Below are positions 3,962 to 22,617 of a stretch of 60,325 bases of DNA, in pieces. The stretch lies in the NCBI GenBank assembly GCA_003170085.1, contig PMZT01000246.1, positions 1 through 60,325 on the forward strand, written 5' to 3'. This DNA is from Planctomycetia bacterium. GTDB taxonomy: Bacteria > Planctomycetota > Phycisphaerae > FEN-1346. The notes beneath the pieces were generated by a model. The model saw nothing but the letters and a program-made list of their open reading frames with translations, ran no database searches and had not been told where the DNA came from. Position 1 is the stretch's first letter. Each line of letters starts with the position of its first letter. Both the position numbers and the translations under genes were made by a program.

Positions 3962-4213
3962 ATGGCCAAGTACATCATAGTCCTGAAACCCATGACCGCC
4001 GATGCGGTGAAGACCGCCTGCGCGGCCGTCATCACAGCGTCGACCGGTACCGGCATAGCATTGGACTGGGCTTACGTCGACAGGAAGAGCAACCAGCCGA
4101 TATGCTGCTGGGATGCGCCGGACCGCAAGAGTGTCGAGGAGCTGTTTCGGCGCGCCGGCCAGCAGATAGAGAACCTGCGCGAGGTGGAACTCTACAAGGC
4201 ACCCCGCGGGTAG
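3962..4213 (+). CDS. small DUF4242-like protein
   Basis: 83 aa, preceded by AGGAG. MAKYIIV...ICCWDAPDRKSVEELFRRAG resembles the DUF4242 pattern (..iyCvyeApd.eair.h..raG). This is a weak call. Confidence 0.4.
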   Translation: MAKYIIVLKPMTADAVKTACAAVITASTGTGIALDWAYVDRKSNQPICCWDAPDRKSVEELFRRAGQQIENLREVELYKAPRG

Positions 4214-4455: not shown

Positions 4456-4538
4456 CGAAATCCAAACACAACCTTAGATAGACAAGCGGCATGATTGACC
4501 GGCTTTGTGCCGGCAGTTTGCCGGCTCGGAATCTCAGA

Positions 4539-4565
4539 ATAGGCCCTATAGGGCCTATAGGACCT
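4539..4565. repeat. 9-bp tandem array ATAGGCCCT ATAGGGCCT ATAGGACCT containing a perfect 18-bp palindrome (4540-4557)
   Basis: TAGGCCCTATAGGGCCTA equals its own reverse complement. It ends 22 nt before the methyltransferase ATG, so it may act as an operator. Confidence 0.85.
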
Positions 4566-4579
4566 GTGCCAGAGGAGGC

Positions 4580-5374
4580 ATGATGTTGAAGAGGACCGAT
4601 TTTAAAGAAGGCGACGTACAGGGATTTTACAGCGGCCCGGCCGGGTCGTTGTGGGAGCTTTGCATGACTGAGGAAATCCACTCGGGCGGCAAGGAAACCA
4701 CCAACGTGCTGGCCAAGGCCCTGGGCCTGAAGCCTGGTATGCACGTTCTCGATGTCTGTTCGGCGCTGGGCGCGCCGGCCCGCCATATCGTGAAGGACCA
4801 CGGCGTTCGGGTCACCGGGCTCGACTTCACGTCCGCGTACGTTGAGGAAGCCAACAAGCGCACCAAGGCCGCCGGGCTCGACAAGTCAATCTTGTTCGTG
4901 CGCGGCAACGCGATGGACATGCCGTTCCCGGCCGAGACGTTCGACATCATCTGGAGCCAGGAGGCGTGGTGCCACGTGCTCGACAAAGACAAGCTGATTG
5001 CCGAAGCGTTCCGCGTGCTCAAGCCGGGTGGGAAGCTCGGTTTCACCGACTGGATTGTCACCGGGCAAATCGCCGACGCCGAACTCAAGCCGCTGATGGA
5101 GATGATGGCCTTCCCGAACATGCAGAGCTTCACCGGCTGGCAGGAGGCGATGAAGAAGGTCGGGTTCAAGGTGCTTGACGCCAAGGATGAGACCGAGGCA
5201 TACGCCCGCTGCTGGGATGACTACGTCCGCATCGTCACCAAAGACGCCAAGGATGGAATCATCAAGGCCAATGGCCCGGACATCTATGCGTTTGCCGAGA
5301 AGCTCGTGACCGACTGGCGTGCGGCTGCCTACGCGCACAAGGTCGGCAGAGGGTTCTACATCGCGCAGAAGTGA
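4580..5374 (+). CDS. class I SAM-dependent methyltransferase
   Basis: GAGGAGG lies 5 nt before ATG 4580. Motif I VLDVCSALGAP, post-I VTGLDFT, and FDIIWSQEAWCHV...LKPGGKLGFTDW are typical of the Methyltransf_11/25 type. Confidence 0.8.
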   Translation: MMLKRTDFKEGDVQGFYSGPAGSLWELCMTEEIHSGGKETTNVLAKALGLKPGMHVLDVCSALGAPARHIVKDHGVRVTGLDFTSAYVEEANKRTKAAGLDKSILFVRGNAMDMPFPAETFDIIWSQEAWCHVLDKDKLIAEAFRVLKPGGKLGFTDWIVTGQIADAELKPLMEMMAFPNMQSFTGWQEAMKKVGFKVLDAKDETEAYARCWDDYVRIVTKDAKDGIIKANGPDIYAFAEKLVTDWRAAAYAHKVGRGFYIAQK

Positions 5375-5473: not shown

Positions 5474-6742
5474 ATGACTGAGCACGGCCAATTGCTAGCC
5501 GAACTGGGCCTGAACGTCCCGCTGCACGACGAACTGTCGAGGGCCACTGAGCGGTCGTTCCAGCGCACCATCGGCGCGCAGCAGAACCGGCCGAAGGCGA
5601 TGGCGTACTTCGACGGCGTGCTGCACGGCGCGCACGGCGGCCGCATTGCCGAACTGGTGGCGGCCCGTGCCGCCGGGCGCAAGGTCGTCGGCACGTTCTG
5701 CGTCTATGTTCCCGAGGAAATTGCGCTGGCCGTCGACGCGATACCCATCGCGCTGTGCGGGGGCTCGCAGTTCACGGTCCCCTACGCGGAGAAGACGTTC
5801 CCGCGCGACATCTGTCCGCTGGTGAAATCGACGCTGGGTATGGCGTTCGCGAAGATATGCCCATACGGGCCTATTCTCGACTACACGGTCGGCGAGACGA
5901 CCTGCGACGTGAAGAAGAAGACGTGGGAAATCCTCGCCGACGATACGTTCCACGTGATGGAGGTGCCGCAGAAGAAGGAGGCCATCGACGTCGAACTCTG
6001 GCGCAAGGCCGTGCGCGAGTTCAGGGACAAGATGGAGCAACTCACCGGGAAGAAGGTTAGGACAGAGCGGCTGGCCGAGTCGGTCCGGGTTATGAACGAC
6101 AAGCGCCGGGCCCTCCAACGCCTGACCGAGTTGCGCAAGGCCGACCCGCCGCCCATTTCCGGGCTGGACGCGTTGGCCGTGATGCAGGGCGCGCTGAACG
6201 ACGAGCCGGTGCGGTTCACGCAGAACCTTGACCGGCTCAACGCCGAGCTGGTCGAGCGCGCAGCCGCGGGTGTGTCGCCGTTCAAGCAGGGCACGAAGCG
6301 GATCATGGTCTCGGGTTGCCCGTCGGTGATGGGCAACTGGAAGGTGCATCACCTCATCGAGGCGGCGGGCGCCGCCATCGTGGTTGACGAATCATGCACC
6401 GGAACGCGCTACTTTGAGAATCTGGTCGGCGATGCCGCGCAAGACCTGGATGCGCAGTTGGCCGCGATTGCCGACCGCTACCTGAAGATTAACTGCTCGT
6501 GCTTCACTCCGAACAGCGAACGGCTGGATGATGTGAAACGGCTGGCACGAGACTTCAGGGTCGACGGCGTCGTCCAGTACGTCCTGCAGTACTGCCACAC
6601 CTACAACGTCGAGGCGATTCGGGTTGATGCTGCGCTCAAAGCGGCAGGCATCCCGTCGCTCAAGATTGTGACCGACTACTCCGAAGAGGACTCAGGCCAG
6701 CTCCGAACGCGCATTGAGGCATTCCTGGAGCAACTGGGCTAG
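5474..6742 (+). CDS. 2-hydroxyacyl-CoA dehydratase / benzoyl-CoA reductase (HgdB/BcrC) superfamily Fe-S protein, stand-alone subunit, double-cubane-cluster-protein-like
   Basis: 422 aa. GRKVVGTFCVYVPEEIALA, ETTCDVKKK and DESCTGTRY are present, and the C-terminal DYSEEDSGQLRTRIEAFLEQL is shared with the two Hgd-like ORFs at 16830 and 17939. It is Cys-rich and has no adjacent partner subunit. Confidence 0.7.
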   Translation: MTEHGQLLAELGLNVPLHDELSRATERSFQRTIGAQQNRPKAMAYFDGVLHGAHGGRIAELVAARAAGRKVVGTFCVYVPEEIALAVDAIPIALCGGSQFTVPYAEKTFPRDICPLVKSTLGMAFAKICPYGPILDYTVGETTCDVKKKTWEILADDTFHVMEVPQKKEAIDVELWRKAVREFRDKMEQLTGKKVRTERLAESVRVMNDKRRALQRLTELRKADPPPISGLDALAVMQGALNDEPVRFTQNLDRLNAELVERAAAGVSPFKQGTKRIMVSGCPSVMGNWKVHHLIEAAGAAIVVDESCTGTRYFENLVGDAAQDLDAQLAAIADRYLKINCSCFTPNSERLDDVKRLARDFRVDGVVQYVLQYCHTYNVEAIRVDAALKAAGIPSLKIVTDYSEEDSGQLRTRIEAFLEQLG

Positions 6743-6800
6743 CGTGAGCGCTGGATTAGAGACCGACAGAGTATTCGTTAAGGACCAAAGGAGGCAAGAC

Positions 6801-7559: not shown

Positions 7560-9139
7560 TGCACACCACGACGGTATTCTGGATTGCCGCCATCCTGTAT
7601 TCCGGGGTCTGCATCGCCCTGGGCGTCGTCAGTTGGGGAGTGAAGCGTCACAGCACCGCCGGCCGCCGGATTGCCGACTACTGGATCGGTAGTCGGGAGC
7701 TGCCAGGCTGGATGCTGGGCGTGTCGCTCAGCGCCGGCTGGTTGATGCTGGGCTGGATAGGGTATGGAATTTCCATGGTCTACCAGATGGGCCTGTCCGG
7801 TGTGTGGATGCTGTTTCTGCCCTGGTTCATCCTGATGCCAATTATCATCTGGATGGTGCCGTATGTCCGGCGTCTGCCCAACATCTCGCTGCCCGAGGCG
7901 CTGGAGAAGCGATTCGGACCCTCGTCTCGAACGCTGGTCGCGTTCTGCTCGATATTCGTGTTCGTTTCCTGGACCGGGGCCGAGACCTACATGCTCGGCC
8001 AGCTCGCCGCGCCGTTTCTGAAGATATCGCCGGTAATGGCGATGGTCGTCTTCATGTTTCCCGTGCTGGTGTACATCGGCCTCGGGGGCTTCCGTGCGGA
8101 CGTGACGACCGACGTGCTGCAGTTCTCGATGATGGCGCTGTTTGTCGCCATCCTGGCCGTCGTCGGTTACGCCGCCGCCCATGCCCTGACCGGCGGGCAC
8201 GTCCTGAGCACGTTGGCGCACACGGCAACGCCCAACTACGGTGCTGGCTCGATATTCCGCCTGTTTGCCTGCGGCATCTCCCTGCCTATCATCCTGCTGT
8301 TTGCGTTCATGCCCGGCTGGATGATTGAGCAGGACCTGCTGCTGCGAATCCAGGGAGCCAAGACTCTGAAAGAAGCCCACCGGATGGCCTGGACGGCGCT
8401 CGTGCTGGTCTGGGTCTTCGTCCTCGCGTTTCCCCTGTGGACTGCCTTCAATGCGCTGGTGTTGTTTCCGCCCGGAGTCGCGTCGAGCGCAGCGGCCATC
8501 GGCAAGGACGCAACCGGCATCATCTCGGCGATAATCCTCAAGTACTTCCCCGTCTGGGCGCAGGTCCTGATGCTTGTCGGCATCCTGGCCACGCAGATGT
8601 CCACGCTTGCCAACTTTGCCAACGTCACGGCCCTGCCCCTGATGTACGACTTCATCCAGCCGCGCCTGATGAAGAAAGCGAGCAAAGAATCGGCGCTGCG
8701 GTGGTCGCGGCCTATCCAGGTTCTTGCCTGCCTGCTGGCCCTGGTCTACGCGATAAACTCCACTTCCCTAATGGACGTCTATGTGTTGTCATCAGGAGTG
8801 CTGACGGCCTCGATTGCCATCCCGGCGTTCGCCGTGTACTGGAAGAAAGCCAATCGGCTGGGCGTGCTCCTCGCCGTGATTCTCGGTTTCGTGGGGAACG
8901 TCGGGTTCTACGTCCTCGAATACCACGTCTGGAACCACGTGTACAAACCGACCTGGATGGCGAGCACCTACCTCGGCTACATCATCGTCGGCATGGTCGG
9001 TTCGCTCCTCGGGCTCGTGCTGGGCTCGCTACTCGGCAAACGCTCGTCCGCCGCCGAACTCGGCGTGATAGCGCCGAAACCGCTCGAAGGCGTCGAGGTC
9101 TTCGACATCGTGCACGATTCGCCGGGCACGACCGTATGA
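7556..9139 (+). CDS. sodium:solute symporter (SSS) family transporter
   Basis: 527 aa with about 13 TM segments. DYWIGSRELPGWMLGVSLSAGWL is typical of PutP/PanF-type SSS. The start GTG 7556 / ATG 7559 overlaps the porin stop. Confidence 0.85.
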   Translation: MMHTTTVFWIAAILYSGVCIALGVVSWGVKRHSTAGRRIADYWIGSRELPGWMLGVSLSAGWLMLGWIGYGISMVYQMGLSGVWMLFLPWFILMPIIIWMVPYVRRLPNISLPEALEKRFGPSSRTLVAFCSIFVFVSWTGAETYMLGQLAAPFLKISPVMAMVVFMFPVLVYIGLGGFRADVTTDVLQFSMMALFVAILAVVGYAAAHALTGGHVLSTLAHTATPNYGAGSIFRLFACGISLPIILLFAFMPGWMIEQDLLLRIQGAKTLKEAHRMAWTALVLVWVFVLAFPLWTAFNALVLFPPGVASSAAAIGKDATGIISAIILKYFPVWAQVLMLVGILATQMSTLANFANVTALPLMYDFIQPRLMKKASKESALRWSRPIQVLACLLALVYAINSTSLMDVYVLSSGVLTASIAIPAFAVYWKKANRLGVLLAVILGFVGNVGFYVLEYHVWNHVYKPTWMASTYLGYIIVGMVGSLLGLVLGSLLGKRSSAAELGVIAPKPLEGVEVFDIVHDSPGTTV

Positions 9140-9151
9140 CCCTGTAGATAG

Positions 9152-9922
9152 ATGACGCGCACTGCCGGCATCGACATCGGTTCGCGCACGACCAAGGTGG
9201 CCGTGCTCGAAGACGGCCGTCTGGTCCATTCCCGCGTCGTTGACACCGGCACCGACCCGCTCGGCCGGGCCCGCGAACTCCTATCCTCCCTGGCCGCTGA
9301 CCCCCAATCCCAAGTCCCCGTTACCGCCACCGGCTACGGTCGGCACCTGGCACGCGAGCGGCTTGGGTTTCCCGTCATCACCGAGATCAAAGCGCACGCG
9401 CTGGGCGCGGACCGGCTCTTTCCGGAGTGTCGAACCGTCATCGATATCGGCGGCCAGGACTCCAAAGTCATCCGGGTCGAATCGGGTCGGCAGGTTAACT
9501 TCGAGATGAATGACCGGTGCGCGGCCGGCACCGGTCGTTTTCTCGAGGTGATGGCGGCTACGCTCGGCTACACGGTCGGGGAGTTCGGTTTGGAGGCGCT
9601 TGTGGCCCCGGAATCCGTGGCCATCAACTCGATGTGCACGGTCTTCTCCGAATCCGAAGTCATCTCTCTCATCGCTGGCGGAGAGAGTAAGCAGAGCATC
9701 GCGCTGGGCCTGCACGAGTCAATCATCAGTCGGCTCCTGGCGCTGGTCGGTCGGGTCGGGGTCGAATCGCCGGTGGTCCTGACCGGCGGCGTCGCGCGCA
9801 ATCCCTGCATCCGGGCGTTGCTGGAGCGGCGGCTGGGCGTGCCACTGCTGGTGCCGGATGAGCCGCAGATTGTCGGCGCCCTCGGCGCGGCCCTGAGCGC
9901 CGGAAACGGAGCGCGGCCATGA
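9152..9922 (+). CDS. BcrAD/BadFG-family ATPase, HgdC-type activator of 2-hydroxyacyl-CoA dehydratase-like enzymes
   Basis: GIDIGSRTTKVAV, VIDIGGQDSKVI, the cluster ligand motifs NDRCAAGTGRFLE and NSMCTVFSESEVISL, and VLTGGVARN. Confidence 0.85.
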   Translation: MTRTAGIDIGSRTTKVAVLEDGRLVHSRVVDTGTDPLGRARELLSSLAADPQSQVPVTATGYGRHLARERLGFPVITEIKAHALGADRLFPECRTVIDIGGQDSKVIRVESGRQVNFEMNDRCAAGTGRFLEVMAATLGYTVGEFGLEALVAPESVAINSMCTVFSESEVISLIAGGESKQSIALGLHESIISRLLALVGRVGVESPVVLTGGVARNPCIRALLERRLGVPLLVPDEPQIVGALGAALSAGNGARP

Positions 9923-12882: not shown

Positions 12883-13625
12883 CCAACAAACCGACCCCCG
12901 GCCGCCTTTGGTTCCTTATGCCCGTTTTGTCCATCTCCCTCCTCCTCCTCGCCGGTCGGGCGCTGGCCGGCTACGGGTTCACCTTCGCGCCGCGCGGGGA
13001 CACGGTCCAGCACGTCGACCCAAGCGGGACTGGCGTATTCCTATTCACCCTCACCAACACAGGCACAGCGAGCGACATCTACCGCTTCGATTGCCGCCTG
13101 CTCGACAGCGTACCAGGATGGGTCGTTGTATACTGCGTTCACGGGCGGTGCGAAGAGCCCGGGGCAACGGCGTACGACACGGTACTGGCCGGGGCCAGCG
13201 ACACCACACCGGACGTCACGGTCTACACCACCACGACCCAGGGCGAAGAGGTCGTATGCCTCCGGGTGCGTTCAATGGGTGACTCGGCGACTGCCGAGTC
13301 CGTCGCAGTCCACACCATCGTCGGTTCCGGCATCGACGAGGACGCACGTCTGGATGCGCCGGAGGCCCGTTTCCGGGTGGCGCCGACGTTGGTGAGTCGG
13401 CAGACCGGAGCATTGGTCGTTTTCTCGACGCGGGAGCAGACTCGCTTCAGGGTGACGCTGTACGACGCAGCCGGGCGGTTGGTCCAGACCATCGCGTGCA
13501 ATGCTGTGTCGGCGGGACGACACCGCATTCGCTGGCAGCCGGAACGCGGCCTGCCCGACGGCGTTTACCTGCTCCACCTGTCGGCGGGAGACGAATCGGC
13601 AGTTACCAAGGTGATTGTCGAATAG
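12879..13625 (+). CDS. secreted hypothetical protein with T9SS-type C-terminal domain
   Basis: ATGA overlap with the upstream gene and AAAGGAG RBS. There is a signal/TM segment, and the C-terminus VTLYDAAGRLVQTI...HRIRWQP...DGVYLLHL...TKVIVE. Confidence 0.55.
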   Translation: MTNKPTPGRLWFLMPVLSISLLLLAGRALAGYGFTFAPRGDTVQHVDPSGTGVFLFTLTNTGTASDIYRFDCRLLDSVPGWVVVYCVHGRCEEPGATAYDTVLAGASDTTPDVTVYTTTTQGEEVVCLRVRSMGDSATAESVAVHTIVGSGIDEDARLDAPEARFRVAPTLVSRQTGALVVFSTREQTRFRVTLYDAAGRLVQTIACNAVSAGRHRIRWQPERGLPDGVYLLHLSAGDESAVTKVIVE

Positions 13626-13708
13626 CCGGCTGAAGGTCAGGATACGACGGTGAGTTGCCCCGACGGCGCCAGGGCTCGGTTTCTGTTGCCCGGGGCCGCT
13701 TACAGAAT

Positions 13709-14425
13709 ATGATGAAAGGAATGTCCAGCAAAGACCCGTTGGCCTCAGCGGCCCCAGTCGGACTGTACGCTCAGCTCGCCGAGGCGGTGACGACGATGAA
13801 GCCGGAGCTCGTAGCCGAACTGGCGCGCAAGGTACTGGAACAGGGCTTGTCGCCCGAGGACGCCATGACGCAGGGTCTTGCCGCCGGCATGCGCCGGATG
13901 GGCGAGAAGTTCACGGCCAAGCAGTGTTTCGTGCCCGAAGTACTCCTCGCTTCCAAGGCGATGTACGCCGGGTTCGACATCCTGAAAGAGCATGTGACCG
14001 GCCCGGGTCGCACGCGGGGCAGGGTCATCTTGGGCGTGGTGCAGGGTGACATCCACGACATCGGCAAGAACATCGTGAAGGTGATGGTACAGGCCGCCGG
14101 ATTCGAGGTGATTGACCTCGGGCGGAACGTGCCGTTGCCGGAGTTCGCGAGGGCGGTCGAGTCGGACTTGTCCGACCGGTCGGATGGGTCAGACCGCAGC
14201 CTGGTGCTGGGCATGTCCTCGCTGATGACCACCACGATGCCGCGGATGGGCAAGGTCATCGATTTGCTGGACAAGGCCGGCTTGCGCAAGCAGGTCAAGG
14301 TGATAGTCGGCGGAGCACCGGTGACCACCGGTTTCGCCCAAGGCATCGGCGCGGACGGGTTCGCACCGGACGCACACTCGGCTGTGCTCGAAATCGAGCG
14401 GCTGGCAGGGCAAGGTAGCAGGTAG
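13709..14425 (+). CDS. methyltransferase cognate corrinoid protein (B12-binding, MtaC/MtbC/MtsB-like)
   Basis: N-terminal helical cap (LVAELARKVLEQGLSPEDAM), the DxHDxG motif in GVVQGDIHDIGKNIV, MSSLMTTTM and VIVGGAP. It carries an odd SDLSDRSDGSDRS insertion. Confidence 0.85.
   Translation: MMKGMSSKDPLASAAPVGLYAQLAEAVTTMKPELVAELARKVLEQGLSPEDAMTQGLAAGMRRMGEKFTAKQCFVPEVLLASKAMYAGFDILKEHVTGPGRTRGRVILGVVQGDIHDIGKNIVKVMVQAAGFEVIDLGRNVPLPEFARAVESDLSDRSDGSDRSLVLGMSSLMTTTMPRMGKVIDLLDKAGLRKQVKVIVGGAPVTTGFAQGIGADGFAPDAHSAVLEIERLAGQGSR
14162..14197. repeat. 9-bp in-frame tandem array (TCGGACTTG TCCGACCGG TCGGATGGG TCAGACCGC) inside the corrinoid-protein CDS
   Basis: Read directly. It encodes (SDx)4 = SDLSDRSDGSDR. 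Confidence 0.8.
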
Positions 14426-14448
14426 GAGTTAGCAGTTAGGAGTGAGTC
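14414..14448. repeat. 7-bp tandem array GGTAGCA GGTAGGA GTTAGCA GTTAGGA GTGAGTC between corrinoid protein and methyltransferase
   Basis: Read directly. It contains TAG/TGA triplets in all three frames, including the corrinoid-protein stop at 14423-14425. Confidence 0.85.
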
Positions 14449-14506
14449 GGACAGGAGCGGGCGGTTTGCTGCGCTGCTGCGCGGCGAGAAGCCGGAACGG
14501 CCGGTC

Positions 14507-15442
14507 GTGTTTCCGATGGTTGTGGCGAATCATGCGGCGCGGCTTGAGGGCTACTCAATCTCAGAGGCCGTGACACAGCCTGACGTGCTGGCGCGGGTGC
14601 TATACTCCGCGTACCGGTTCTATGGCTACGACCTCGTCATGGTTTTCTCGGACACAATGGTCGAAGCCGAGGCCATGGGCGCGCAGGTGCTGATTCCCGA
14701 AGACGACGACCCGTTTCTTCTCGAACCGCCGCGCGTTTCCAAGCTTGAGCCGGCCAATCCTGAGACCGACGGCAGGATGCCGGTCATTCTCGCTGCGACG
14801 CGCCGGCTCAAGGCTCTCCTTGAAGACGAAGTGCCGATTCTGACTTCGCTGAAGGGACCGTTTTCACTGGCTTCCTTCCTGCGCGGGATGGACGGCTTCC
14901 TTGAAGACCTGCTCAGCGACCCGCGCCGGGCAAGGGAGTTCCTGCGGCTCGCGACCGAGAACCAGGTTGTCTATGCCGAGGCAATCGTCAAGGCCGGCGG
15001 GATTCCCTTCATCGGCGACCCGGTTGCGTCCGGCAGCCTGATAAGCCCGGAGATGTTCCGCGAGTTCGCATTGCCTTATCTGGCACAACTGGTTCGTTCG
15101 GTTCACCAGCGGGGCGTGAAGGCCGGACTGCACATCTGCGGTGAGTCGAAGAGCATCCTCAGGGACATGGTTGCCACCGAGGCTGATTTCCTCAGCATTG
15201 ACGTGATGGACCTGGGCGTGGCACGTTGTGAGGTCGGCGACAATCCGGTCTTGATGGGCAATGTCTCAACCGGGTTGCTGCTTGAAGGTAAGCCGGACCA
15301 GGTAGCGGCGGCAGCCACGGAGTGTCTTGCGCGCGGCGGGCCGAGGCTTGTACTCTCTTCAAGCTGTGACGTGCCAGCCGGCGCGCCGAAAGAGAACGTG
15401 AAGGCCCTGGTCGAGGCGGGCAGGAAGTGGGAGGCAGCCTGA
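14507..15442 (+). CDS. URO-D-fold MtaA/MtbA/MtsA-like methylcobamide methyltransferase (Zn type)
   Basis: Zn motif H-x-C in GLHICGES plus SSSCDVPAGAP, and IGDPVASGSLISPEMF. 14507 (GTG) is the first canonical start. Homology to the MtaA N-terminus (RFAALLRGEKPERPVV, compare RLLAALKGEPVDKVPV) extends upstream to about 14460 in the same frame. Confidence 0.8.
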   Translation: MFPMVVANHAARLEGYSISEAVTQPDVLARVLYSAYRFYGYDLVMVFSDTMVEAEAMGAQVLIPEDDDPFLLEPPRVSKLEPANPETDGRMPVILAATRRLKALLEDEVPILTSLKGPFSLASFLRGMDGFLEDLLSDPRRAREFLRLATENQVVYAEAIVKAGGIPFIGDPVASGSLISPEMFREFALPYLAQLVRSVHQRGVKAGLHICGESKSILRDMVATEADFLSIDVMDLGVARCEVGDNPVLMGNVSTGLLLEGKPDQVAAAATECLARGGPRLVLSSSCDVPAGAPKENVKALVEAGRKWEAA

Positions 15443-16839
15443 CGGTCACGGTGGCCCCGCGGGGCACTCACAGCCTGCGCGAGTCGCTTGTCGAGGCCGG
15501 CGTCAGCCTGCCGTCGGACTGCGGTGGTGTTGGTACATGCGGCAAGTGCAGGGTCCGTGTGCTCGATGCCGACGGCGAACGGAGCGTTCTCGCCTGCCAG
15601 TATGTGCCGGCGGTGCCGACCGCGGTGTTGCTGGAGCCGGTTCGGTCCGCGCACCGGCGCGGCCCCGGCCGACCCGGGCCGGGCGCTTCCGGAACCCTGC
15701 GCCTTGCGGCTGACATCGGAACGACCACGATTTCCCTGGCCGCGGTGGACGAGAAGCAGCGCCGGGTCGTGGCGAGACAGGAAACGCTCAACCCGCAAGT
15801 CATCTACGGAGCCGACGTGGTGAGCAGGATTGCGGCGGAAGACAAGGTCAGCCGGGCGGGGCTTGATCGCGTACTGCTGCGGTTCATGGCCGATGCCGGC
15901 ATCGCGAGCGAGCGCCCGGTCGTGGCCGTGGGCAACACGGTAATGGCTCACTTCCTCATGGGTCGGAGCCCGGCATCGCTGGGTGAGTTTCCCTACGAGT
16001 CGCGGCTGCCGTTGAGCAAGAGCCTTACCAGTCAGCATGGCGGCATCTGGACGCACATGCTGCCGCTGCTCGGCAGCTTCGTCGGCTCAGACTGCACCGC
16101 GGCGATTCTCGCTTCGGGCATGCACCGGAGTCGCCGTCTCTCCCTGCTGGTGGACGCCGGGACCAACGGCGAGGTCGTGCTCGGCAACCGCGGGCGACTG
16201 CTCGTGACCTCGACCGCGGCCGGGCCGGCATTTGAGGGCGCGACCCTGGCGTGCGGCAGTCTGGCACAGCGCGGGGCGGTGAGAGCGGCGCGGCTTGGGG
16301 ACGGGCGATTCGTCCTTGACGTCATCGGCGGCGGAGAGCCGAGGAGTATCTGCGGTTCGGGCGTGCTTGACGCGGTGGCCGAGGCAACCCGCGCCGGGCT
16401 GGTCGATGCTTCAGGCAGGATTGGCCGGGACTCGCCGCTCAACCTCAACGACGGTCCGGAGGCGGTCTACCTGTCTCAGGCCGACTTGCGCGAGGTGCAA
16501 CTGGCCAAGGGCGCAATCGCCGCGGCAATCAGGATTCTACTGGCCGAGTGGGGCGCAGTGGCGTCCGACCTCGAATGCGTCCATGTTACAGGCAAGTTCG
16601 GGGCGGCGATGAACCCGGCTTCAGCGGTGCGAATCGGCCTGCTGCCGCAGATGCCGCTCACCCGAGTCCGGCGCCACGGCAATTTGGCTCTGCTCGGCGC
16701 CGTGCGGGCCACGCTGAACCCGGGCCTGTTCGTCGAGGCCGAGCGTTTCGCGGAGAACTGCCGCGAGGTAATGTTGAGCAGCCACCCGCAGTTCGAACAG
16801 ACTTTTGTTGATTCGATGCGACTTGAACCATGGAACTGA
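15427..16839 (+). CDS. RACo/RamA-type reductive activator of corrinoid proteins ([2Fe-2S] ferredoxin domain plus ASKHA ATPase)
   Basis: N-terminal plant-type ferredoxin motif DCGGVGTCGKCRVRV...C. ASKHA motifs AADIGTTTI, LLVDAGTNGEVVLG, STAAGPAFEG and CGSGVLD. It overlaps the upstream gene by 16 nt. Confidence 0.85.
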   Translation: MGGSLTVTVAPRGTHSLRESLVEAGVSLPSDCGGVGTCGKCRVRVLDADGERSVLACQYVPAVPTAVLLEPVRSAHRRGPGRPGPGASGTLRLAADIGTTTISLAAVDEKQRRVVARQETLNPQVIYGADVVSRIAAEDKVSRAGLDRVLLRFMADAGIASERPVVAVGNTVMAHFLMGRSPASLGEFPYESRLPLSKSLTSQHGGIWTHMLPLLGSFVGSDCTAAILASGMHRSRRLSLLVDAGTNGEVVLGNRGRLLVTSTAAGPAFEGATLACGSLAQRGAVRAARLGDGRFVLDVIGGGEPRSICGSGVLDAVAEATRAGLVDASGRIGRDSPLNLNDGPEAVYLSQADLREVQLAKGAIAAAIRILLAEWGAVASDLECVHVTGKFGAAMNPASAVRIGLLPQMPLTRVRRHGNLALLGAVRATLNPGLFVEAERFAENCREVMLSSHPQFEQTFVDSMRLEPWN

Positions 16840-17942
16840 TACCCCGCGCGACGTTTCGGCAAATACGGCAGGAACGGGTCGAGGAGATAGCCTCGGCGCG
16901 CAAGCAGGGCGCAAGGGTAGTGGGTTACTTCTGCATCTACTCGCCGGTCGAGCTGGTGCAGGCAGCCGGGGCGATCCCGGTCCGACTGATGCGCGGCGGA
17001 CAGGCGGCCGAGGAGGCAGGGGAAAAGTACCTGCGGGCCGACGCCTGTTCTTTCTGCAATAGCTGCATGGGAAACTTCGAGCGCGACCAGTTGTACCAGC
17101 AGGTTGATGCCGTGCTCAGCGTAAACACGTGCGACATGATGCGCCGGTTGCCCGAGTCGATAGAGAGGCACTTCGGCATCCCCGTATACCAGTTATACAT
17201 GCCGCGGACGTCCGAGCCGCTGCCGCACCGCGTGGCCGAGTTCAGACGGCAGCTTGACGGATTGGCCGGAGAACTGGCAACCCTGACTGGCAGCGCCATC
17301 GGTACGGAGCGACTGGAATCCGAGATTGCCGCATTCAACCGGTTGCGGGAGATGCTGCGGCAGGCAAGCGATACGCGACGGATGAACGCGCCGTTGCTTT
17401 CCGGTGGCACGATGCTCGACTTGGCAACGACCACATGGCTGCTCGGTCCGGTCAAGGCCGTCTCGCTCATTGAGGAGGTGCTGCGGATTCTCGCCGCCCG
17501 GCCTCGCCGGGAATCGCGTCGGCCGCGGCTGATGCTCGGCGGCAGCATCCTGACTGAGGATGATCGGTGGCTGCTAGACATGGTCGAGGAGAAGGCGGAC
17601 ATCGTGACCGACATCCTTTGCACGGGTACGCGCTGGTTTGCCGAGGATGCTCCGTCGGACGGCGCGCCGCTGGATCGGCTGGCGCGGTTCTACTTCAGCC
17701 GGCCGTGCATGCACCGCCGGCCGAACTCGGCGATGTACGAGTACGCGCAGAAACTCGCCCGTGAGTTCCGGGTTGAGGGGTTTGTGTACAAGACGCTGCT
17801 CTACTGCGACCCGTGGAGTTTCGAGGTGAGGCGGCTGCAGGAAGCGCTCGGCCTGCCGGTGCTGCACCTCGATACTGATTACTCGACCGAGAACCGCGAG
17901 CAGGTGCGCACGCGGGTCGAGGCTTTCCTGGAGACGCTATGA
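16830..17942 (+). CDS. 2-hydroxyacyl-CoA dehydratase/benzoyl-CoA reductase family subunit (HgdB/BcrC-like)
   Basis: ARVVGYFCIYSPVELVQAAGAIPVRL, NTCDMMRR, and the C-terminal DTDYSTENREQVRTRVEAFLETL. It overlaps both neighbours by 10 nt and 4 nt. Confidence 0.8.
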   Translation: MELIPRATFRQIRQERVEEIASARKQGARVVGYFCIYSPVELVQAAGAIPVRLMRGGQAAEEAGEKYLRADACSFCNSCMGNFERDQLYQQVDAVLSVNTCDMMRRLPESIERHFGIPVYQLYMPRTSEPLPHRVAEFRRQLDGLAGELATLTGSAIGTERLESEIAAFNRLREMLRQASDTRRMNAPLLSGGTMLDLATTTWLLGPVKAVSLIEEVLRILAARPRRESRRPRLMLGGSILTEDDRWLLDMVEEKADIVTDILCTGTRWFAEDAPSDGAPLDRLARFYFSRPCMHRRPNSAMYEYAQKLAREFRVEGFVYKTLLYCDPWSFEVRRLQEALGLPVLHLDTDYSTENREQVRTRVEAFLETL

Positions 17943-19357
17943 GTGAGCGGAGTCTGACCAGTCAGGCAGGTCGGACGAGTCCGACCCCGGGTTGGGCTGA
18001 CCCGAAGCCGGCGCGGGTCACATTTGACGAGTGGCAGGACCTGTTCGAACGGGTGCCGGAAGAACTGGTTGAGGAGTACCACTACTTCCCGCCCAATCGT
18101 GAAGCGTTCTCAAAGTACCTGTTTCCACCCCAGACGTTTGCCATCTACGGCATGCGGCACCTGCGCCGCCTCAAGTATGACAACTCGCTCGCGGCCCTGC
18201 GCATGTGGGGGTTTGTCCAGAACGAAACCGAGCGGCTGTTCCGGGCGCGGCAGCTTGGGCGCCGGGTCATCGCGACGATGGGCGACCTCGGCGCGGTGCC
18301 GGTCATCGTCAACTCATTTCCGGACTGCATCGCGTTCTACCCGGACTGCATCTGGTGGACCCCGTTCGCGATGGAGAGCCGGGTGCTGTTCGACGCGGCG
18401 GCCGAACTCGGCATCGGCGACGCCACCTGCTTCTCCCGCGCCGCCCTTGGCGCATTCGCCAAGCACTCGTATTTCCCGGACCCGGACCTCGTGATTGCCT
18501 CGACCGGCGCATCGTGCGACGATTACTCGGGGGTGGAGCAACTGGTTGAGCGGTTTGCGCCGGACATGATGTGGGTCGAAGAACCAATGAGATGTGACAT
18601 GGGACGAATGGGACCCATGGGACCTATGCTCGTCAAGGAGTACGAACGGGTGGTCGAGCGGATGGAGAAGCTGACCGGACACGAGATAACTGACGATGAG
18701 TTGCGCGCGGGCGTGCGCCAGGCCAACCGAGTGCGGAAACTGGTGAAGCGGCTGCGGGAGCTGGCGTTCCGCGAGGGCGCGATGGCATCGTTGGAGATGA
18801 TGGTCGTCGAGTTCGGCAACCTGCATCATTACTCGGACATCACCGAGTGGCCGCACGTGCTGGAACACTTGCTCGCAACCGCGGAAAGCCGCGCGGCAGC
18901 GGACACGCCGGTTGTTGACAAGGATGCGCTACGCGTCGTTTGGGTCACGCCGCCGGCGGACCCTCTGCTGCTAACCTATGTTGAGGACGCGGGAGCGCGC
19001 GTGGTCGGTACTGAGTACGTCATCAATCAGGCACTTGAGATAATAGACGAGGACAAGCCGCCGCTTGAGGCGATTGCCGAGTCGTTCATGGCCGCGTCGC
19101 TCATAGGCACGTCGAAAGCAAGGGCGCAGTCGGCAATCGACCAGGCACGCGAATACCGGGCGGAGGGCGTCATCATTTCCGGCATCTTCGGCGGGTCGCA
19201 CTGCGCCATGGAGGGCAGGCTCATCTCCGACTACGTGAAGGCCGCGCTCGACCTGCCGGTGCTCGAGTTCGATGTCACGTCGCCGTCCCGGGAGATTGCA
19301 CTCCAGATTGGTACGCGGATAGATGCTTTCCTCGAAGTGCTCCGGAGCCGACGATGA
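17939..19357 (+). CDS. 2-hydroxyacyl-CoA dehydratase/benzoyl-CoA reductase family subunit (HgdA/BcrB-like)
   Basis: 472 aa. RRVIATMGDLGAVPVIV, TCFSRAALG, ASCDDY, and the C-terminal FDVTSPSREIALQIGTRIDAFLEVL. It contains the MGRMGPMGPM repeat insertion. Confidence 0.8.
   Translation: MSERSLTSQAGRTSPTPGWADPKPARVTFDEWQDLFERVPEELVEEYHYFPPNREAFSKYLFPPQTFAIYGMRHLRRLKYDNSLAALRMWGFVQNETERLFRARQLGRRVIATMGDLGAVPVIVNSFPDCIAFYPDCIWWTPFAMESRVLFDAAAELGIGDATCFSRAALGAFAKHSYFPDPDLVIASTGASCDDYSGVEQLVERFAPDMMWVEEPMRCDMGRMGPMGPMLVKEYERVVERMEKLTGHEITDDELRAGVRQANRVRKLVKRLRELAFREGAMASLEMMVVEFGNLHHYSDITEWPHVLEHLLATAESRAAADTPVVDKDALRVVWVTPPADPLLLTYVEDAGARVVGTEYVINQALEIIDEDKPPLEAIAESFMAASLIGTSKARAQSAIDQAREYRAEGVIISGIFGGSHCAMEGRLISDYVKAALDLPVLEFDVTSPSREIALQIGTRIDAFLEVLRSRR
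18599..18628. repeat. 9-bp in-frame tandem array ATGGGACGA ATGGGACCC ATGGGACCT (ATG) inside the HgdA-like CDS
   Basis: Read directly; it encodes MGRMGPMGPM. The unit differs by 1 nt from the intergenic 9-mer ATAGGACCT at 4557-4565. Confidence 0.8.
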
Positions 19358-20406
19358 AGGAACTGCTCACGCCGAGGGAACGTTTCGGCCTGCTGGTGAT
19401 TGATGAGCCGCAGGACCGGGTGCCGGTGTTCCCGCTGGTTACCGCGCACGCGGCGCGGGTCGCCCGGATACCGATTCGGGACTACTATACCGACGGCATT
19501 GCAATGGCCCGCAGCCAACTGGCGGCGCAGGAGTTCTACGGCACCGACTTCATCTCGTTCTTCTCCGAGGTCGGGCTCGTGGCCGAAGCGCTGGGTTCCC
19601 GGTTCAGCTACCCTGATGACGACCTGCCGCTGCTGGCCGAGCCGAAATGGAGTGAATTGGGCGAGTTGGACGATGCGACGGCCGACCCGATGAAGGACGG
19701 ACGCCTGAGAGTGTACCTCGACGCGATATCTTACGCCTACGAGGCGCGGGCCGACACGGTTCCGATTCTCGCCTACGTCCCGGCGCCCTTCACAACTGCC
19801 CAGCAGCTCGTGGACCAGGAAGCATTCCTGCTCGGGCTGCTAACCGAACCGGAGCGGATCCACCGTTTGCTCGAGTACGCGACATGTTCAATCATCCGAT
19901 TCTGCCGCGCCATCATCGGCGCGGGCGGGTTGCCGATTCTGGTTGACCCGCTGGCCTCAGGGAGCGTGATATCGGCGGAGCACTACCGCGAGTTCGCGCT
20001 GCCCTGCGAGGCGGAGGTCATCCGCTACCTTCACCGCTACGACCTCGACATCGTGCTCCACATCTGCGGCGACACCAACCCTATCATCCACATCATGCCG
20101 GAATCCGGAGCCGACCTGCTGAGCCTTGACCACGTTGGCCTGGAAACCGCGATTGCCGCGGCGGGAGACCGGTGCCGTATCATCGGCAACTTCGACACGA
20201 CTGCCATCATGCTGTCGAAGCCACAGGAGGTCGCGGACTCGGTTGCCGCGATGGTGCTGGCAGGAAAGCCGTGTCCAAGGGGATTTGTGGCTGCCACAGG
20301 ATGCGAGGTGCCGGTCGAGACGCCGCCGGAGAACGTGCGGGCGTTTGTTCGAGCCGCGAAAGAGGCTGGCGCCAATGCCGACTGGGGCGCGAGGAGGAGA
20401 GCGTGA
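19354..20406 (+). CDS. second URO-D-fold MtaA-like methyltransferase (Zn type)
   Basis: RERFGLLVIDEPQDRVPVFPLV (MtaA-type N-terminus), VDPLASGSVISAEHYREF, and Zn motif VLHICGDT plus ATGCEVPVETPPENV. ATGA overlap with the upstream gene. Confidence 0.8.
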   Translation: MKELLTPRERFGLLVIDEPQDRVPVFPLVTAHAARVARIPIRDYYTDGIAMARSQLAAQEFYGTDFISFFSEVGLVAEALGSRFSYPDDDLPLLAEPKWSELGELDDATADPMKDGRLRVYLDAISYAYEARADTVPILAYVPAPFTTAQQLVDQEAFLLGLLTEPERIHRLLEYATCSIIRFCRAIIGAGGLPILVDPLASGSVISAEHYREFALPCEAEVIRYLHRYDLDIVLHICGDTNPIIHIMPESGADLLSLDHVGLETAIAAAGDRCRIIGNFDTTAIMLSKPQEVADSVAAMVLAGKPCPRGFVAATGCEVPVETPPENVRAFVRAAKEAGANADWGARRRA

Positions 20407-21176
20407 TAACTGCCGGGATAGACGTGGGTTCGGTGAATACCAAGTTGGTCGTGTTTGACCACATCAGTCAAGGGATATTCTGCGAGAAGGTCGTACCGAC
20501 CGGGCCGAGGCCGCGGGAGACGGCGCGGCGGGTGATGGCCGAGTGCCGCAGCGAGCACAAGGACCTTGCCGGCCACGTGCGCGGCGTCGTGGCGACCGGC
20601 TATGCCCGTCACGTTGTGGACGACGTCGAAGGAACAATCACCGAAATCAAGGCTGCGGCACTCGGCATCCGGAACTGGCACCCGGAGGCCCGGACCGTGG
20701 TGGACATCGGCGGGCAGGACTCGAAGGTGCTCAATCTCGACGAGTCGGGTAAGGTTCGCGACTTCGTGATGAACGACCGGTGCGCGGCCGGCACCGGCCA
20801 GTTCCTTTCTGTGCTGGCGCGGACGCTCTCGGTGCCGCTTGAGGACTTCGGCCGGCTGAGCCTCGAGTCGCGGCGGCCGGTCCCGGTTTCAAGCCTCTGC
20901 GTGGTGATGGCCGAGTCGGAGATACTGTCGTTGCTCGCGGCCGACACCCCGGTCGCGGACGTGATTGCCGGCCTGCACGAGGCACTGGCTCGCAGAATTG
21001 CCAACATGGCGGCGCGGCTGCGGGTTCAGCCGGAGGTTGTGTTCACGGGCGGCGTGGCGCAAAATCTCGGGATGAAGGCGGCGCTGGAAAGGGCGCTGGG
21101 TGTGCCGGTAACCATTGCCAGAAAACCGCTGCTGGCCGCGGCACTGGGCGCGGCGCTGGCTAGCGAACGAGAGTGA
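20403..21176 (+). CDS. second BcrAD/BadFG-family HgdC-type activator ATPase
   Basis: GTG start overlaps the upstream stop (GTGA). GIDVGSVNTKLVV, VVDIGGQDSKVL, NDRCAAGTGQFLS, SSLCVVMAESEILSL and VFTGGVAQN. Confidence 0.85.
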   Translation: MITAGIDVGSVNTKLVVFDHISQGIFCEKVVPTGPRPRETARRVMAECRSEHKDLAGHVRGVVATGYARHVVDDVEGTITEIKAAALGIRNWHPEARTVVDIGGQDSKVLNLDESGKVRDFVMNDRCAAGTGQFLSVLARTLSVPLEDFGRLSLESRRPVPVSSLCVVMAESEILSLLAADTPVADVIAGLHEALARRIANMAARLRVQPEVVFTGGVAQNLGMKAALERALGVPVTIARKPLLAAALGAALASERE

Positions 21177-22617
21177 ACCGAACCGGCCGCGCGTCGCTGC
21201 CCGCCGGGAAAACGATGAAGTAGTTGCCCGAGCTCAGGCCCGCCGGTCGCCAGGCGACCGCCCGCTGTCCGCCCTGAACTCCGAAAGTCGCAACCTGCCG
21301 GCCCGCCGCATCAAACACCCGGGCCGTGCCGGCACGCACCGAAGCGGGTAGGCCGACGAGTACCGTGTCCCGCGAAACTGTCTGTCGGGTAGTTGGGGTC
21401 GTGTCCGGAATCGGGGTGTACGGTTCCCGGGAGAGGTGGTCCCAAAAATGCAGGTAGGTATCGAGCACAATCGAGCAGGCGTCGCCGGTCAATGCCGTCG
21501 CCTGTTCCTGAGTCGGGCCGGTAAGGGGCCATTCGGCTTCCACGCTGTCAACCATGCTGAAGAGCCGTTCTTCGACCGGGGCGAAGTGCTCGAGCAGGTC
21601 GGCTAGTCGGTAGGTGTTGTCGGCACCGGGATGGTCCGGGTCGCAGCGGACGTAGTTGCGCAGGCGGATGGCTTCGTCGCAGATGGGCGCGTGGTCGGAC
21701 CCGTCGAGCGCTCCGGGCAGCGGCCCGCCCTGGACCCAGACGGGGACCGGCAGGCTCACATCAGGCGTGCCGAGCAGCACCCACATCATCGTCCGGCCCG
21801 CGGGTTCGCCGGGCCTGGTTCCGACCATGACCTCGGCCGAGCGCGTGGTGCGGCGGCAGAGCGTGCTTTCGATCGGCAGGTACCCGGTCGGGAATGTGTC
21901 GTACGTGCCTGCGAAAGGCAGGGGATACGGGTCGAGGAACGTGCGACCGATGTCGCGAGTCAGGGTCTGGATGATGAACCTCGAGTCAATTCGGTTTTCG
22001 TGGCGCGCGGGGACTGCGAGCTGCATGGCGCGCTCGTACCGCTCTATGCCCGTCATGCGATTCGGGTTGCCGGACATCGAGTAGTTCGCGCGAAGAATCA
22101 AGCCGATGGTGTCCTCGTCGCAGTCATAGCGGTTGTAGTAGAGGTTGCTGGCCTCGAACATCGAGGTCGTACCGGTCGAGTCGAAGACACCGAAGTTGGC
22201 CGGGGTCTCGCGGCCGATGACGTTGAGCGAGTCCATCAAACTGGCAAACTCACTGACCGTGGCGCAGGTGCCGAGCGCCATGCTCATGATGTTTCCGTCG
22301 TCCGCTAGGCCCTTGTCCCGGCTCATAATGTTGAACGAATTCGAGTTCATGATGGCGAATCCGGCTTCGTTGATGCCGGCCCAGGCGTTCAGCGTGTCAT
22401 TGGCGTAGACGTCGGTCACGTAGTGGTACTTCGGTCCGGTGAAGTAGCGGACTTCCTGATTCTCATCACTGACGTCGCGGTTCTTCCAGAGCATCGGCCG
22501 GCCGTTTGTAGTCGCGTCCGGGCCGAAGACGCCAATCGTGCAGCCAAAGGACGAAGTCAAAATGCAGAATGCAAAATGCAGAATGCAGAATGATCGGAAG
22601 CCGAAACGCACGTTCAC
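21160..22617 (-). CDS. secreted Ntn-hydrolase (peptidase C69/C45-like, N-terminal nucleophile Cys) with T9SS-type C-terminal domain
   Basis: A signal peptide is followed by GCTIGVFGPDATTNGRPMLWKNRD (C-T....AT.[DN]G....[KR]N.D pattern of C69-type Ntn hydrolases). C-terminus ARVFDAAGRQVATF...VAWRP...GNYFIVF...RFTLVR. Confidence 0.6.
   Translation of the reverse strand: MNVRFGFRSFCILHFAFCILTSSFGCTIGVFGPDATTNGRPMLWKNRDVSDENQEVRYFTGPKYHYVTDVYANDTLNAWAGINEAGFAIMNSNSFNIMSRDKGLADDGNIMSMALGTCATVSEFASLMDSLNVIGRETPANFGVFDSTGTTSMFEASNLYYNRYDCDEDTIGLILRANYSMSGNPNRMTGIERYERAMQLAVPARHENRIDSRFIIQTLTRDIGRTFLDPYPLPFAGTYDTFPTGYLPIESTLCRRTTRSAEVMVGTRPGEPAGRTMMWVLLGTPDVSLPVPVWVQGGPLPGALDGSDHAPICDEAIRLRNYVRCDPDHPGADNTYRLADLLEHFAPVEERLFSMVDSVEAEWPLTGPTQEQATALTGDACSIVLDTYLHFWDHLSREPYTPIPDTTPTTRQTVSRDTVLVGLPASVRAGTARVFDAAGRQVATFGVQGGQRAVAWRPAGLSSGNYFIVFPAGSDARPVRFTLVR
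22561..22595. repeat. 7-bp tandem array (AATGCAG AATGCAA AATGCAG AATGCAG AATGATC) within the signal-peptide coding region of the Ntn-hydrolase
   Basis: Read directly. On the minus strand it encodes SFCILHFAFCIL, the hydrophobic core of the signal peptide. Confidence 0.9.

Follow-up and report, generated by a model that had tools for sequence, protein, structure and literature searches.

The closest described relatives of the locus reported here are the mlp gene clusters, which were defined by Kountz & Balskus (2023) and many of which hold DCCP, DCCP-R and sel genes; methyl-selenium or methyl-sulfur metabolism was proposed for them (PMC10418091). A type 1 mlp cluster carries at least one Mlp2-clade and at least one Mlp3-clade methyltransferase, the selenium-utilisation trait is found in 87% of the carriers, and ClMlp2 transfers methyl groups between cobalamin and selenide (PMC10418091). 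Our locus is a seven-gene operon at positions 13709-21176 of contig PMZT01000246.1 (assembly GCA_003170085.1, Planctomycetia bacterium), and the 60,325 nucleotides of that contig are called the window below. By its gene content the operon belongs to the mlp clusters as Kountz & Balskus define them. Rather than being categorically new, it is a distinct form of the selenium-linked mlp/DCCP clusters in which a two-subunit, BzdNO-like reductase is built in; the initial annotation, which found no described pathway to fit, had overlooked that these clusters were already described. We propose that the operon couples methyl transfer over a corrinoid protein to an iron-sulfur reductase that is BzdNO-like, driven by ATP and of low potential, and that it is part of a selenium-handling locus, a proposal in which belief and doubt are about equally balanced.

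Like the operon, the mlp clusters are without a tetrahydrofolate (H4folate) methyltransferase, occur in strict anaerobes and often lie beside sel genes and an HGD-D protein with its ATPase. The differences are that type 1 clusters have Mlp2 and Mlp3 whereas the operon probably has two paralogues of a single Mlp type, that the mlp clusters use a homodimeric DCCP of NCBIfam family NF040772 whereas the operon has a BzdNO-like two-gene pair between its methyltransferase genes, and that the mlp clusters show no conserved synteny whereas the gene order of the operon is strictly kept. Candidate division WOR-3, the uncultured bacteria in which the operon is at home, is absent from the list of mlp carriers (PMC10418091), and no publication on the WOR-3 operon, on the heterodimeric pair or on the cross-phylum module came up in our literature search. 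In Methanococcus, the sdm genes are needed for the use of dimethylselenide and are induced by selenium starvation, as the work of Niess & Klein (2004) is summarised in PMC11097638 and PMC10418091. According to the same summaries, SdmABC of Methanococcus voltae and M. maripaludis resembles the operon in having a corrinoid protein and MtaA-like methyltransferases, which there serve to get selenium from methylated selenides. There the methyl acceptor is thought to be coenzyme M, which bacteria of this kind are not known to synthesise. The archaeal Sdm-type cluster also differs in having no HGD-D reductase.

The reductase part resembles the class I benzoyl-CoA reductase BzdNO/BzdPQ of Aromatoleum (PDB 8S02), in which two HGD-D paralogues are likewise fed by an HgdC-type ATPase. 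In BzdNO electrons are stored in a six-cysteine [8Fe-9S] subunit. In the other subunit one sub-cluster is gone, and the three-cysteine [4Fe-4S] cluster that is left has an open site, at which a substrate pocket has arisen (PMC11971306). The Aromatoleum system has two ATPase genes, a CoA ligase and an aromatic pathway, whereas the operon has one ATPase gene and neither pathway part, and the large HGD-D subunit of the operon is distant from the Bzd and Mbd proteins (MbdO at E 0.005, its profile against BzdN at E 0.008). The closest solved relative of both operon subunits is the DCCP of Carboxydothermus hydrogenoformans with its DCCP-R (6ENO, 7YYL). This is a homodimer with a seven-cysteine motif, whereas the small operon subunit lacks the seventh, non-ligand cysteine and the large one a whole sub-cluster. 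With ATP as the driving force, DCCP reduces small molecules other than CoA esters (PMC7317905). Like the operon, it is connected with selenium through comparative genomics. HgdAB/HgdC and HadBC/HadI share the superfamily, the activator type and an alpha subunit with an open-site [4Fe-4S] cluster with the operon system, but their substrates are CoA thioesters, their genes have CoA-transferase neighbours and neither of their subunits retains the double cubane; the operon system differs in all three respects.

The seven genes and their proteins

The operon consists of seven open reading frames (ORFs) on the plus strand. Their coordinates, motifs and overlaps, as noted in the initial annotation, were borne out by the sequence and by Pfam:

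13709..14425, + strand: corrinoid (B12-binding) methyl-carrier protein; Pfam B12-binding_2 66.9 bits, B12-binding 76.9 bits
14435..15442 (first canonical start GTG 14507), + strand: MT-a, MtaA-like URO-D-fold corrinoid methyltransferase with a His-Cys-Cys zinc site; URO-D 240 bits
15427..16839, + strand: RACo-type ATP-dependent reductive activase, [2Fe-2S] ferredoxin domain and ASKHA ATPase; Fer2 32, Raco_middle 97, RACo_C_ter 207 bits
16830..17942, + strand: HgdS, small HGD-D subunit, 370 amino acids; HGD-D 267 bits
17939..19357, + strand: HgdL, large HGD-D subunit, 472 amino acids; HGD-D 139 bits
19354..20406, + strand: MT-b, second MtaA-like corrinoid methyltransferase with a His-Cys-Cys zinc site; URO-D 216 bits
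20403..21176, + strand: HgdC/DCCP-R-type ATPase ('archerase'); BcrAD_BadFG 170 bits, NCBIfam CoA_E_activ 227 bits (cut-off 125)

Every Pfam match in the operon exceeds the gathering score, the motifs named earlier are conserved in the 45-56 orthologues of each protein, and the ATPase is the only operon protein that passes a curated NCBIfam cut-off. From MT-a onward there is an overlap of 4-16 nucleotides at each junction. The TGA of MT-a (15440-42) and the GTG start of RACo (15427) give an overlap of 16 nucleotides, the TGA of RACo (16837-39) and the ATG of HgdS (16830) one of 10, ATGA overlaps are found at 17939 (HgdS/HgdL) and 19354 (HgdL/MT-b), and a GTGA overlap at 20403 (MT-b/ATPase), where GTG 20403 is the start of the ATPase. 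A promoter and terminator scan of 13300-21500 gave the same counts as shuffled controls and was uninformative, and an Rfam search of the whole window found a tRNA-Ser alone, with neither a cobalamin nor a S-adenosylmethionine (SAM) riboswitch.

To follow the block through other genomes we used 56 species-level loci (one genome per species, numbered with an L below), in which the gene content was determined by tblastn with the window proteins. All seven genes in order were found in 28 loci and in 7 more RACo alone was missing, giving 35 complete loci; another 16 were partial, owing to contig ends or small variants, with the order unchanged. The order is kept even where the identity of HgdL is as low as 44%, and between shallow and deep lineages the flanks vary while the block is constant. 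The operon is one co-translated, selected unit and not a chance adjacency, just as the initial annotation had argued, and the doubt it had left, that the corrinoid and reductase modules might never co-occur elsewhere, was decisively removed, as they co-occur widely.

For the corrinoid gene the ATG at 13709 was adopted as start, the longest ORF beginning at TTG 13655. The histidine of its DxHxxG motif (GDIHDIGKN) is invariant in 45 orthologues, and the protein scores 181 bits against NCBIfam TIGR02370, under the cut-off of 215. The start of MT-a is less clear. Its homology starts at 14435, and a start at GTG 14507 would drop about 24 conserved N-terminal residues; there is no ATG, GTG or TTG between the TAG of the corrinoid gene (14423-25), which is in the same frame as MT-a, and GTG 14507. 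The gap is also found in two other assemblies, L006 and L007, and in the 95%-identical relative L062 there is an ATG inside a 16-nucleotide stretch that is missing from the window, L006 and L007. A non-canonical start, a shortened protein and stop read-through are all possible.

MT-a and MT-b have the same best solved relative, MtaA of Methanosarcina mazei (4AY7), with 2e-29 for MT-a (the L001 orthologue as query) and 3.8e-26 for MT-b. The H-x-C...C motifs of both were aligned to the zinc ligands of MtaA; the His, Cys and Cys of MT-a are invariant in 49 orthologues, and H236, C238 and C317 of MT-b in 48, which upholds the thiol-type zinc site first noted from the letters alone. The two are paralogues with 37.6% identity. 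A full-library search with MT-b gave about five orthologue clusters (50% identity), beyond which lies a broad family that does not exceed 39% identity, and its closest named relatives outside WOR-3 are UroD-family proteins of Methanococcales. Reference clusters of Methanotorris igneus, a listed type 1 mlp carrier, and Sporomusa silvacetica both have the order corrinoid protein, URO-D genes, RACo. Their U1 proteins match MT-a and MT-b with 197 and 203 bits (M. igneus) and with 219 and 216 bits (S. silvacetica), as compared to only 70-132 bits for the remaining reference Mlp types; these reference proteins bear no Mlp1, Mlp2 or Mlp3 label, since the published trees carry no matching accessions (PMC10418091). 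It is probable from these scores that MT-a and MT-b are two paralogues of one Mlp clade, and not the Mlp2 and Mlp3 pair of a type 1 cluster. In MtsA/MtsB of Methanosarcina barkeri, an MtaA-type zinc enzyme works on both the donor and the acceptor side of one corrinoid protein, with thioether and thiol substrates. It is our working model for MT-a and MT-b as two paralogues of one clade, but MtsA/MtsB is specific to methanogens, uses coenzyme M as acceptor and has no reductase partner, unlike the operon.

No H4folate (pterin-binding) methyltransferase was found in the operon or among its neighbours, and neither the window region nor the loci gave a methyltransferase 1 of MtaB type or of MttB/MtbB/MtmB type, which sets the operon apart from the methanogen Mta, Mtb and Mtt systems. 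A bacterial O-demethylase, too, is laid out with a corrinoid protein, an activase and two URO-D methyltransferases, and BzdNO-type enzymes reduce aromatic rings. A reading to be considered, along the lines of the demethylation idea in the initial annotation, is that a methoxy-aromatic compound is O-demethylated and the product then dehydroxylated by radical chemistry or reduced in its ring. Its likelihood is next to negligible. In O-demethylases carboxylates replace one or both zinc cysteines (PMC10418091), whereas the H/C/C of MT-a and MT-b, a site of the sulfur or selenium type, is invariant; together with the missing H4folate methyltransferase this separates the operon from the aromatic O-demethylases Odm, Vdm and Mtv. 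The nearest relatives of the two enzymes are MtaA and the Mlps, not OdmB or VdmB. CoA-transferase, CoA-ligase and aromatic-pathway genes, the first two of which the initial annotation had already noted as lacking, are absent from the window flanks and from related loci, and the neighbours in relatives are instead SelD, YedF, SelA, SelB and tRNA-Sec. By the same absence, the operon does not have the CoA-thioester setting of a 2-hydroxyacyl-CoA dehydratase (HAD) or benzoyl-CoA reductase (BCR) proper.

The HGD-D scores of HgdS and HgdL lie above the gathering cut-off of 28.4 and place both proteins in the BCR-I/HAD/DCCP superfamily, to which they had been assigned before; for the 472-residue HgdL the fold agrees. 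The earlier labels within that superfamily, 'HgdB-like' and 'HgdA-like', were too loose. HgdS is closest to DCCP, BzdN and HadC, and HgdL is a very divergent DCCP-like protein and no orthologue of HgdA or BzdO. Both fail the DCCP family model NF040772 (cut-off 350) with 205 bits for HgdS and 92 for HgdL, and both are far below the cut-offs of the NCBIfam equivalogs for Had, Bzd and Bcr subunits.

In PDB matches HgdS gave 1.6e-33 with DCCP 6ENO, to which it aligns along its full length, and 3e-30 with BzdN, with HadC also close. Its cysteines 35, 73, 101, 264, 293 and 326 correspond to all six ligands of an [8Fe-9S] double cubane, and their spacing is that of the BzdN ligands Cys36/73/100/263/293/327 (PMC11971306). 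C73, C101 and C326 are invariant in 56 orthologues, and C35, C264 and C293 are retained in about 85%. The latter triad is lost as a set in L019, L020, L023, L024, L055 and L060, which repeats, in one orthologue group, the step from double to single cubane proposed for the evolution of BCR and HAD.

HgdL is among the best-conserved operon proteins, with a mean column identity of 67% in 19 sequences. By sequence it matches DCCP only, and weakly. Its AlphaFold2 model has a predicted local distance difference test score (pLDDT) of 69.7 and a predicted template-modelling score (pTM) of 0.74. In a Foldseek search of the PDB the model gave 20 matches with E<1e-3, all of them DCCP, BzdNO, MbdON or HadBC, with template-modelling scores of 0.59-0.76. 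HgdL retains one cysteine triad, C164 and C193, which are invariant, and C422 (94% of 53 sequences), with a spacing of 29/229 as compared to 28/225 in the invariant triad of HgdS. The profile of HgdL aligns over about residues 200-467 only, and since its N-terminal half cannot be mapped on BzdO or HadB by sequence, the triad is assigned by spacing and conservation. HgdS is likely to be the electron-storage subunit and HgdL the catalytic subunit with an open-site [4Fe-4S] cluster, and by analogy to their relatives the two would form a heterodimer; the predicted cluster pattern is that of BzdN/BzdO and not that of the homodimeric DCCP. In the ATPase the cluster-bridging cysteines C127 and C166 are invariant in 45 orthologues, and with its bridging [4Fe-4S] cluster it would be the electron injector for HgdS and HgdL. 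RACo and this HgdC-type ATPase are two different ATP-driven electron injectors, as had been pointed out in the initial annotation.

Carriers of the block and the genes around it

The named carriers of the operon are WOR-3 or Candidatus Stahlbacteria. HgdL homologues with 60-95% identity fall into at least 120 clusters, and all the named ones come from candidate division WOR-3. Outside this group we found HgdS and HgdL without corrinoid genes in seven loci of Planctomycetota, Aminicenantes, Hydrogenedentales and Chitinivibrionales, with 36-41% identity in HgdL. The ATPase is beside the pair in five of the seven, five have another DCCP or DCCP-like gene at a distance of up to 10 kb, and in six the same class-I SAM methyltransferase as in the window is located upstream of the HGD-D genes (not found in L053). 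Judging from these genomes, the fusion of the reductase pair with the corrinoid relay is specific to WOR-3 and Stahlbacteria.

RACo is out of the operon in at least seven loci (L039, L042, L046, L047, L057, L011 and L012), in which HgdS, HgdL and the ATPase are always retained. It is likewise missing from several of the partial loci. In such loci the activase may be encoded elsewhere, or the HgdC-type system may stand in for it. It is conceivable that HgdS, HgdL and the ATPase act on the corrinoid itself, either as an alternative activator of Co(II) or as a methyl sink that converts CH3-Co(III) to methane, and both this pattern of loss and the lack of an encoded H4folate methyl acceptor enzyme agree with such a role. 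We find it very improbable, as HgdS and HgdL occur in four other phyla with no corrinoid protein or methyltransferase within 10 kb, and a missing RACo may simply lie elsewhere in the genome.

The genes around the operon in relatives point to selenium. SelD was found within 10 kb of the operon in 20 of the 56 loci, and in 11 it is co-directional and less than 300 nucleotides upstream of the corrinoid gene; if a genome of about 2.3 Mb has a single SelD gene, chance would account for about 0.5 loci, the observed count being inflated by shared ancestry. In L005, YedF (184 bits, cut-off 110) and SelD (345 bits, cut-off 125) are directly upstream of the corrinoid gene, and YedF was also found in L010 (same record as L005), L014, L027, L051 and L056. 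Of the 56 loci, 12 have SelA and 10 SelB, and in the deep WOR-3 clade these genes directly follow the operon ATPase. A tRNA-Sec was found in 8 loci and makes up 8 of the 11 tRNAs detected in 37 loci. On the complete WOR-3 chromosome CP070705 (L039), one strand reads SelD, FTR-like protein, DCCP, ATPase, SAM methyltransferase, corrinoid protein, MT-a, HgdS, HgdL, MT-b, ATPase, SelA and SelB. Between SelD and the FTR-like gene of this chromosome, at 3171-4181, there is about 1 kb without any ORF of at least 90 amino acids, which could hide a selenoprotein gene split by a TGA.

The same link is seen without the corrinoid genes. In L052, from Planctomycetota, the order is SelA, SelD, SAM methyltransferase, DCCP, HgdS, HgdL and ATPase, and SelD or SelA stands beside the reductase pair in two of the seven loci outside WOR-3, which implies that the pair is linked to selenium in its own right. 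HGD-D and activase genes were also reported among sel genes in Slackia by Lin et al. Turnover of methyl thioethers or thiols, which the initial annotation had suggested, came near the mark, but the synteny points to selenium rather than sulfur.

The main rival to a selenium-handling operon is that its enzymes depend on selenium. HgdS and HgdL, and also DCCP, would then contain selenocysteine in some lineages or a selenium-bridged double cubane, and their real substrate would be some unrelated small molecule, whose pathway the corrinoid relay would serve. Such a dependence would explain the sel genes beside them, and we rate it as unlikely, yet as deserving serious attention. Selenoprotein genes commonly adjoin sel genes, and the same islands hold the FTR-like protein, which is related to a double-selenoprotein family (a weak match to the 'FtrB family double-selenoprotein' model in L039). 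A selenium-bridged double cubane was suggested by Haft & Gwadz, who found 955 of 970 strong DCCPs in SelD-positive genomes; nearly all NF040772 DCCPs are in such genomes, and the reverse is not true. In L060 (Chitinivibrionales) a DCCP homologue on the minus strand (about 7056-5824), 49.5% identical to the DCCP of the window, has an in-frame TGA (6687-6685) at the conserved Cys129 of an ICPY motif, and the homology runs about 290 amino acids past it. The gene probably codes for a selenocysteine-containing double-cubane protein. A hairpin after the TGA was no better than in shuffled sequences (z = -0.24), and we make no claim of a selenocysteine insertion sequence. In a term search of a 2026 selenoproteome review (PMC13188914), neither 'double-cubane' nor 'dehydratase' was found. 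Against the dependence of the operon enzymes on selenium, none of the loci showed an in-frame TGA at a conserved position in the genes for the seven operon proteins, the methyltransferases fall in the Mlp/Sdm group, which is experimentally tied to the use of methyl selenides, and YedF, a putative selenium-handling protein, is also adjacent.

Proposed role of the operon

We arrived at the following sequence of steps for a selenium-handling operon from the gene families, overlaps, cofactor residues, gene order and sel synteny described above, and each chemical step is to be read as a deduction from them. RACo and ATP would reduce the corrinoid protein to Co(I). One of the MtaA-like paralogues would then demethylate a zinc-held methyl-selenium compound, giving CH3-Co(III) and a selenolate or selenide; the donor could be methylselenol, dimethylselenide or dimethyldiselenide, or a Se-methyl amino acid, and less likely a sulfur analogue. 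The other paralogue would hand the methyl group to an acceptor, presumably a thiol because an H4folate methyltransferase is not present. The HgdC-type ATPase would inject electrons into the [8Fe-9S] cluster of HgdS, from which they would pass to the three-cysteine [4Fe-4S] cluster of HgdL, and a small substrate that is not a CoA ester would be reduced there. The reaction would probably release selenide, by reductive cleavage of a C-Se or Se-Se bond or by reduction of Se(0), and the selenide would pass to SelD. Our own calculation from standard potentials gives about -0.72 V at pH 7 for Se(0)/HSe-. At such a potential an ATP-driven injector would be a sensible device, and we take this as a lead and not as a result.

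Several observations speak against this proposal. The 56 loci are phylogenetically related, and the counts given above are not counts of independent events. Synteny cannot give the direction of the relation, as the enzymes may need selenium and not supply it. Dimethylselenide can be demethylated stepwise to selenide without any reductase, which makes the role of HgdS and HgdL a guess, and since the pair is found without corrinoid genes its substrate is not specific to methyl-cobalamin. Furthermore, tblastn found no SelD, YedF, SelA, SelB or FTR-like protein in the 60 kb of the window, which is the part of the source genome that was covered; the contig of the 95%-identical relative begins inside the operon and leaves the upstream side uncovered. 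The place directly upstream of the corrinoid gene, which in the window is taken by genes for three secreted proteins, belongs to SelD in near relatives (82-83% HgdL identity); it is occupied by SelD in L006, L007 and L013 and by YedF-SelD in L005 and L010. L005 has similar secreted-protein genes followed by YedF-SelD, and the sel genes therefore appear to have been lost or moved in the lineage of the window.

A more specific suggestion is that HgdS and HgdL are a new, CoA-independent branch of the BCR/dehydratase/DCCP superfamily, dedicated to selenium chemistry at very low potential as a selenium reductase or C-Se lyase. Its electrons would be held by the double cubane and spent at the open-site [4Fe-4S] cluster, to cleave a C-Se or Se-Se bond reductively or to turn Se(0) into selenide. 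In WOR-3 the reductase would be hard-wired to a corrinoid demethylation, the two together stripping organic or methylated selenium down to selenide for SelD. We offer it tentatively, as something that could be so and is on the whole doubtful.

Other genes in the window and meaning of the operon

Outside the operon, the following genes of the window are of interest:

110-1723, - strand: methionine-gamma-lyase-like pyridoxal phosphate enzyme with a C-terminal Nitro_FeMo-Co domain (dinitrogenase cofactor-binding type), an unusual fusion
4505..5374, + strand: class-I SAM-dependent methyltransferase, associated gene; Pfam Methyltransf_11, no NCBIfam match above cut-off
5474..6742, + strand: bona fide DCCP, associated gene; NF040772 461 bits (cut-off 350)
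6714-7559: porin-like ORF, between the DCCP and second ATPase genes
7556-9139: SSF transporter gene, between the DCCP and second ATPase genes
9152..9922, + strand: second HgdC-type ATPase; BcrAD_BadFG 181 bits, CoA_E_activ 236 bits
10298-13625: three secreted proteins with Omp28, FlgD_ig and Por_Secre_tail (type IX secretion system, T9SS, sorting) domains, ending directly upstream of the corrinoid gene

The SAM methyltransferase and the DCCP sit 8 kb upstream of the operon. Orthologues of the former were found in 32 of the 56 loci, in deep WOR-3 lineages directly upstream of the corrinoid gene; the latter adjoins the operon in L039, L045 and L051 and adjoins HgdS/HgdL in other phyla. The second ATPase is 43% identical to the operon ATPase and is presumed to be the DCCP reductase. 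A porin-like ORF and an SSF transporter between DCCP and ATPase were seen in this window only, and they hint at an imported small substrate. A weak URO-D-family ORF (35974-37122, 45 bits, C-terminal half only) lies 15 kb downstream of the operon in an unrelated context.

The conserved SAM methyltransferase matches families of the arsenite-methyltransferase type, weakly, and DCCPs co-occur with the SAO organometallic locus. This raises the question of methyl cycling on arsenic, tellurium or mercury, an organometallic chemistry like that of the SAO system proposed by Haft & Gwadz. The chance of it seems very slim to us, as the matches are far under the cut-offs and the loci showed no ars, mer or sao genes.

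Methionine-gamma-lyase-type enzymes release methanethiol or methylselenol. We considered whether the gene at 110-1723 feeds the operon and dropped the idea, as such a gene is near the operon in no other locus. Its presence in a window without sel genes is, all the same, one of the points that would suit a role of the operon in methyl-sulfur metabolism, such as turnover of methanethiol and dimethylsulfide or anaerobic methionine salvage, with the reductase cleaving a C-S bond like the nitrogenase-like methylthio-alkane reductase. The His-Cys-Cys zinc site suits sulfur as well as selenium, and a non-selenium clade of mlp clusters is linked to ATP-driven, MarHDK-like reductases (PMC10418091). We hold sulfur to be quite unlikely as the main substrate because of the sel-gene synteny in relatives and the isolated position of the lyase gene.

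Returning to selenium, the operon bears on two poorly understood matters. Since 2018 it has been an open question what double-cubane and related HGD-D enzymes that work outside CoA-ester metabolism act on in the cell. Little is also known of how anaerobes get selenide in anoxic habitats, where most selenium is reduced, methylated or elemental. The operon fixes a BzdNO-like reductase between two methyltransferases of the selenium type, the relatives place that reductase in a locus of SelD, SelA, SelB and tRNA-Sec, and in further phyla the reductase pair travels with SelD (two of seven loci). For an enzyme family that is still an orphan, this leaves a handful of candidate substrates, all of them selenium (or sulfur) compounds, and it gives a compact set of proteins to express. 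If it is true that HgdS and HgdL form a selenium reductase, double-cubane enzymes would gain their first physiological function, and a new way of assimilating selenium in anoxic sediments would have come to light.

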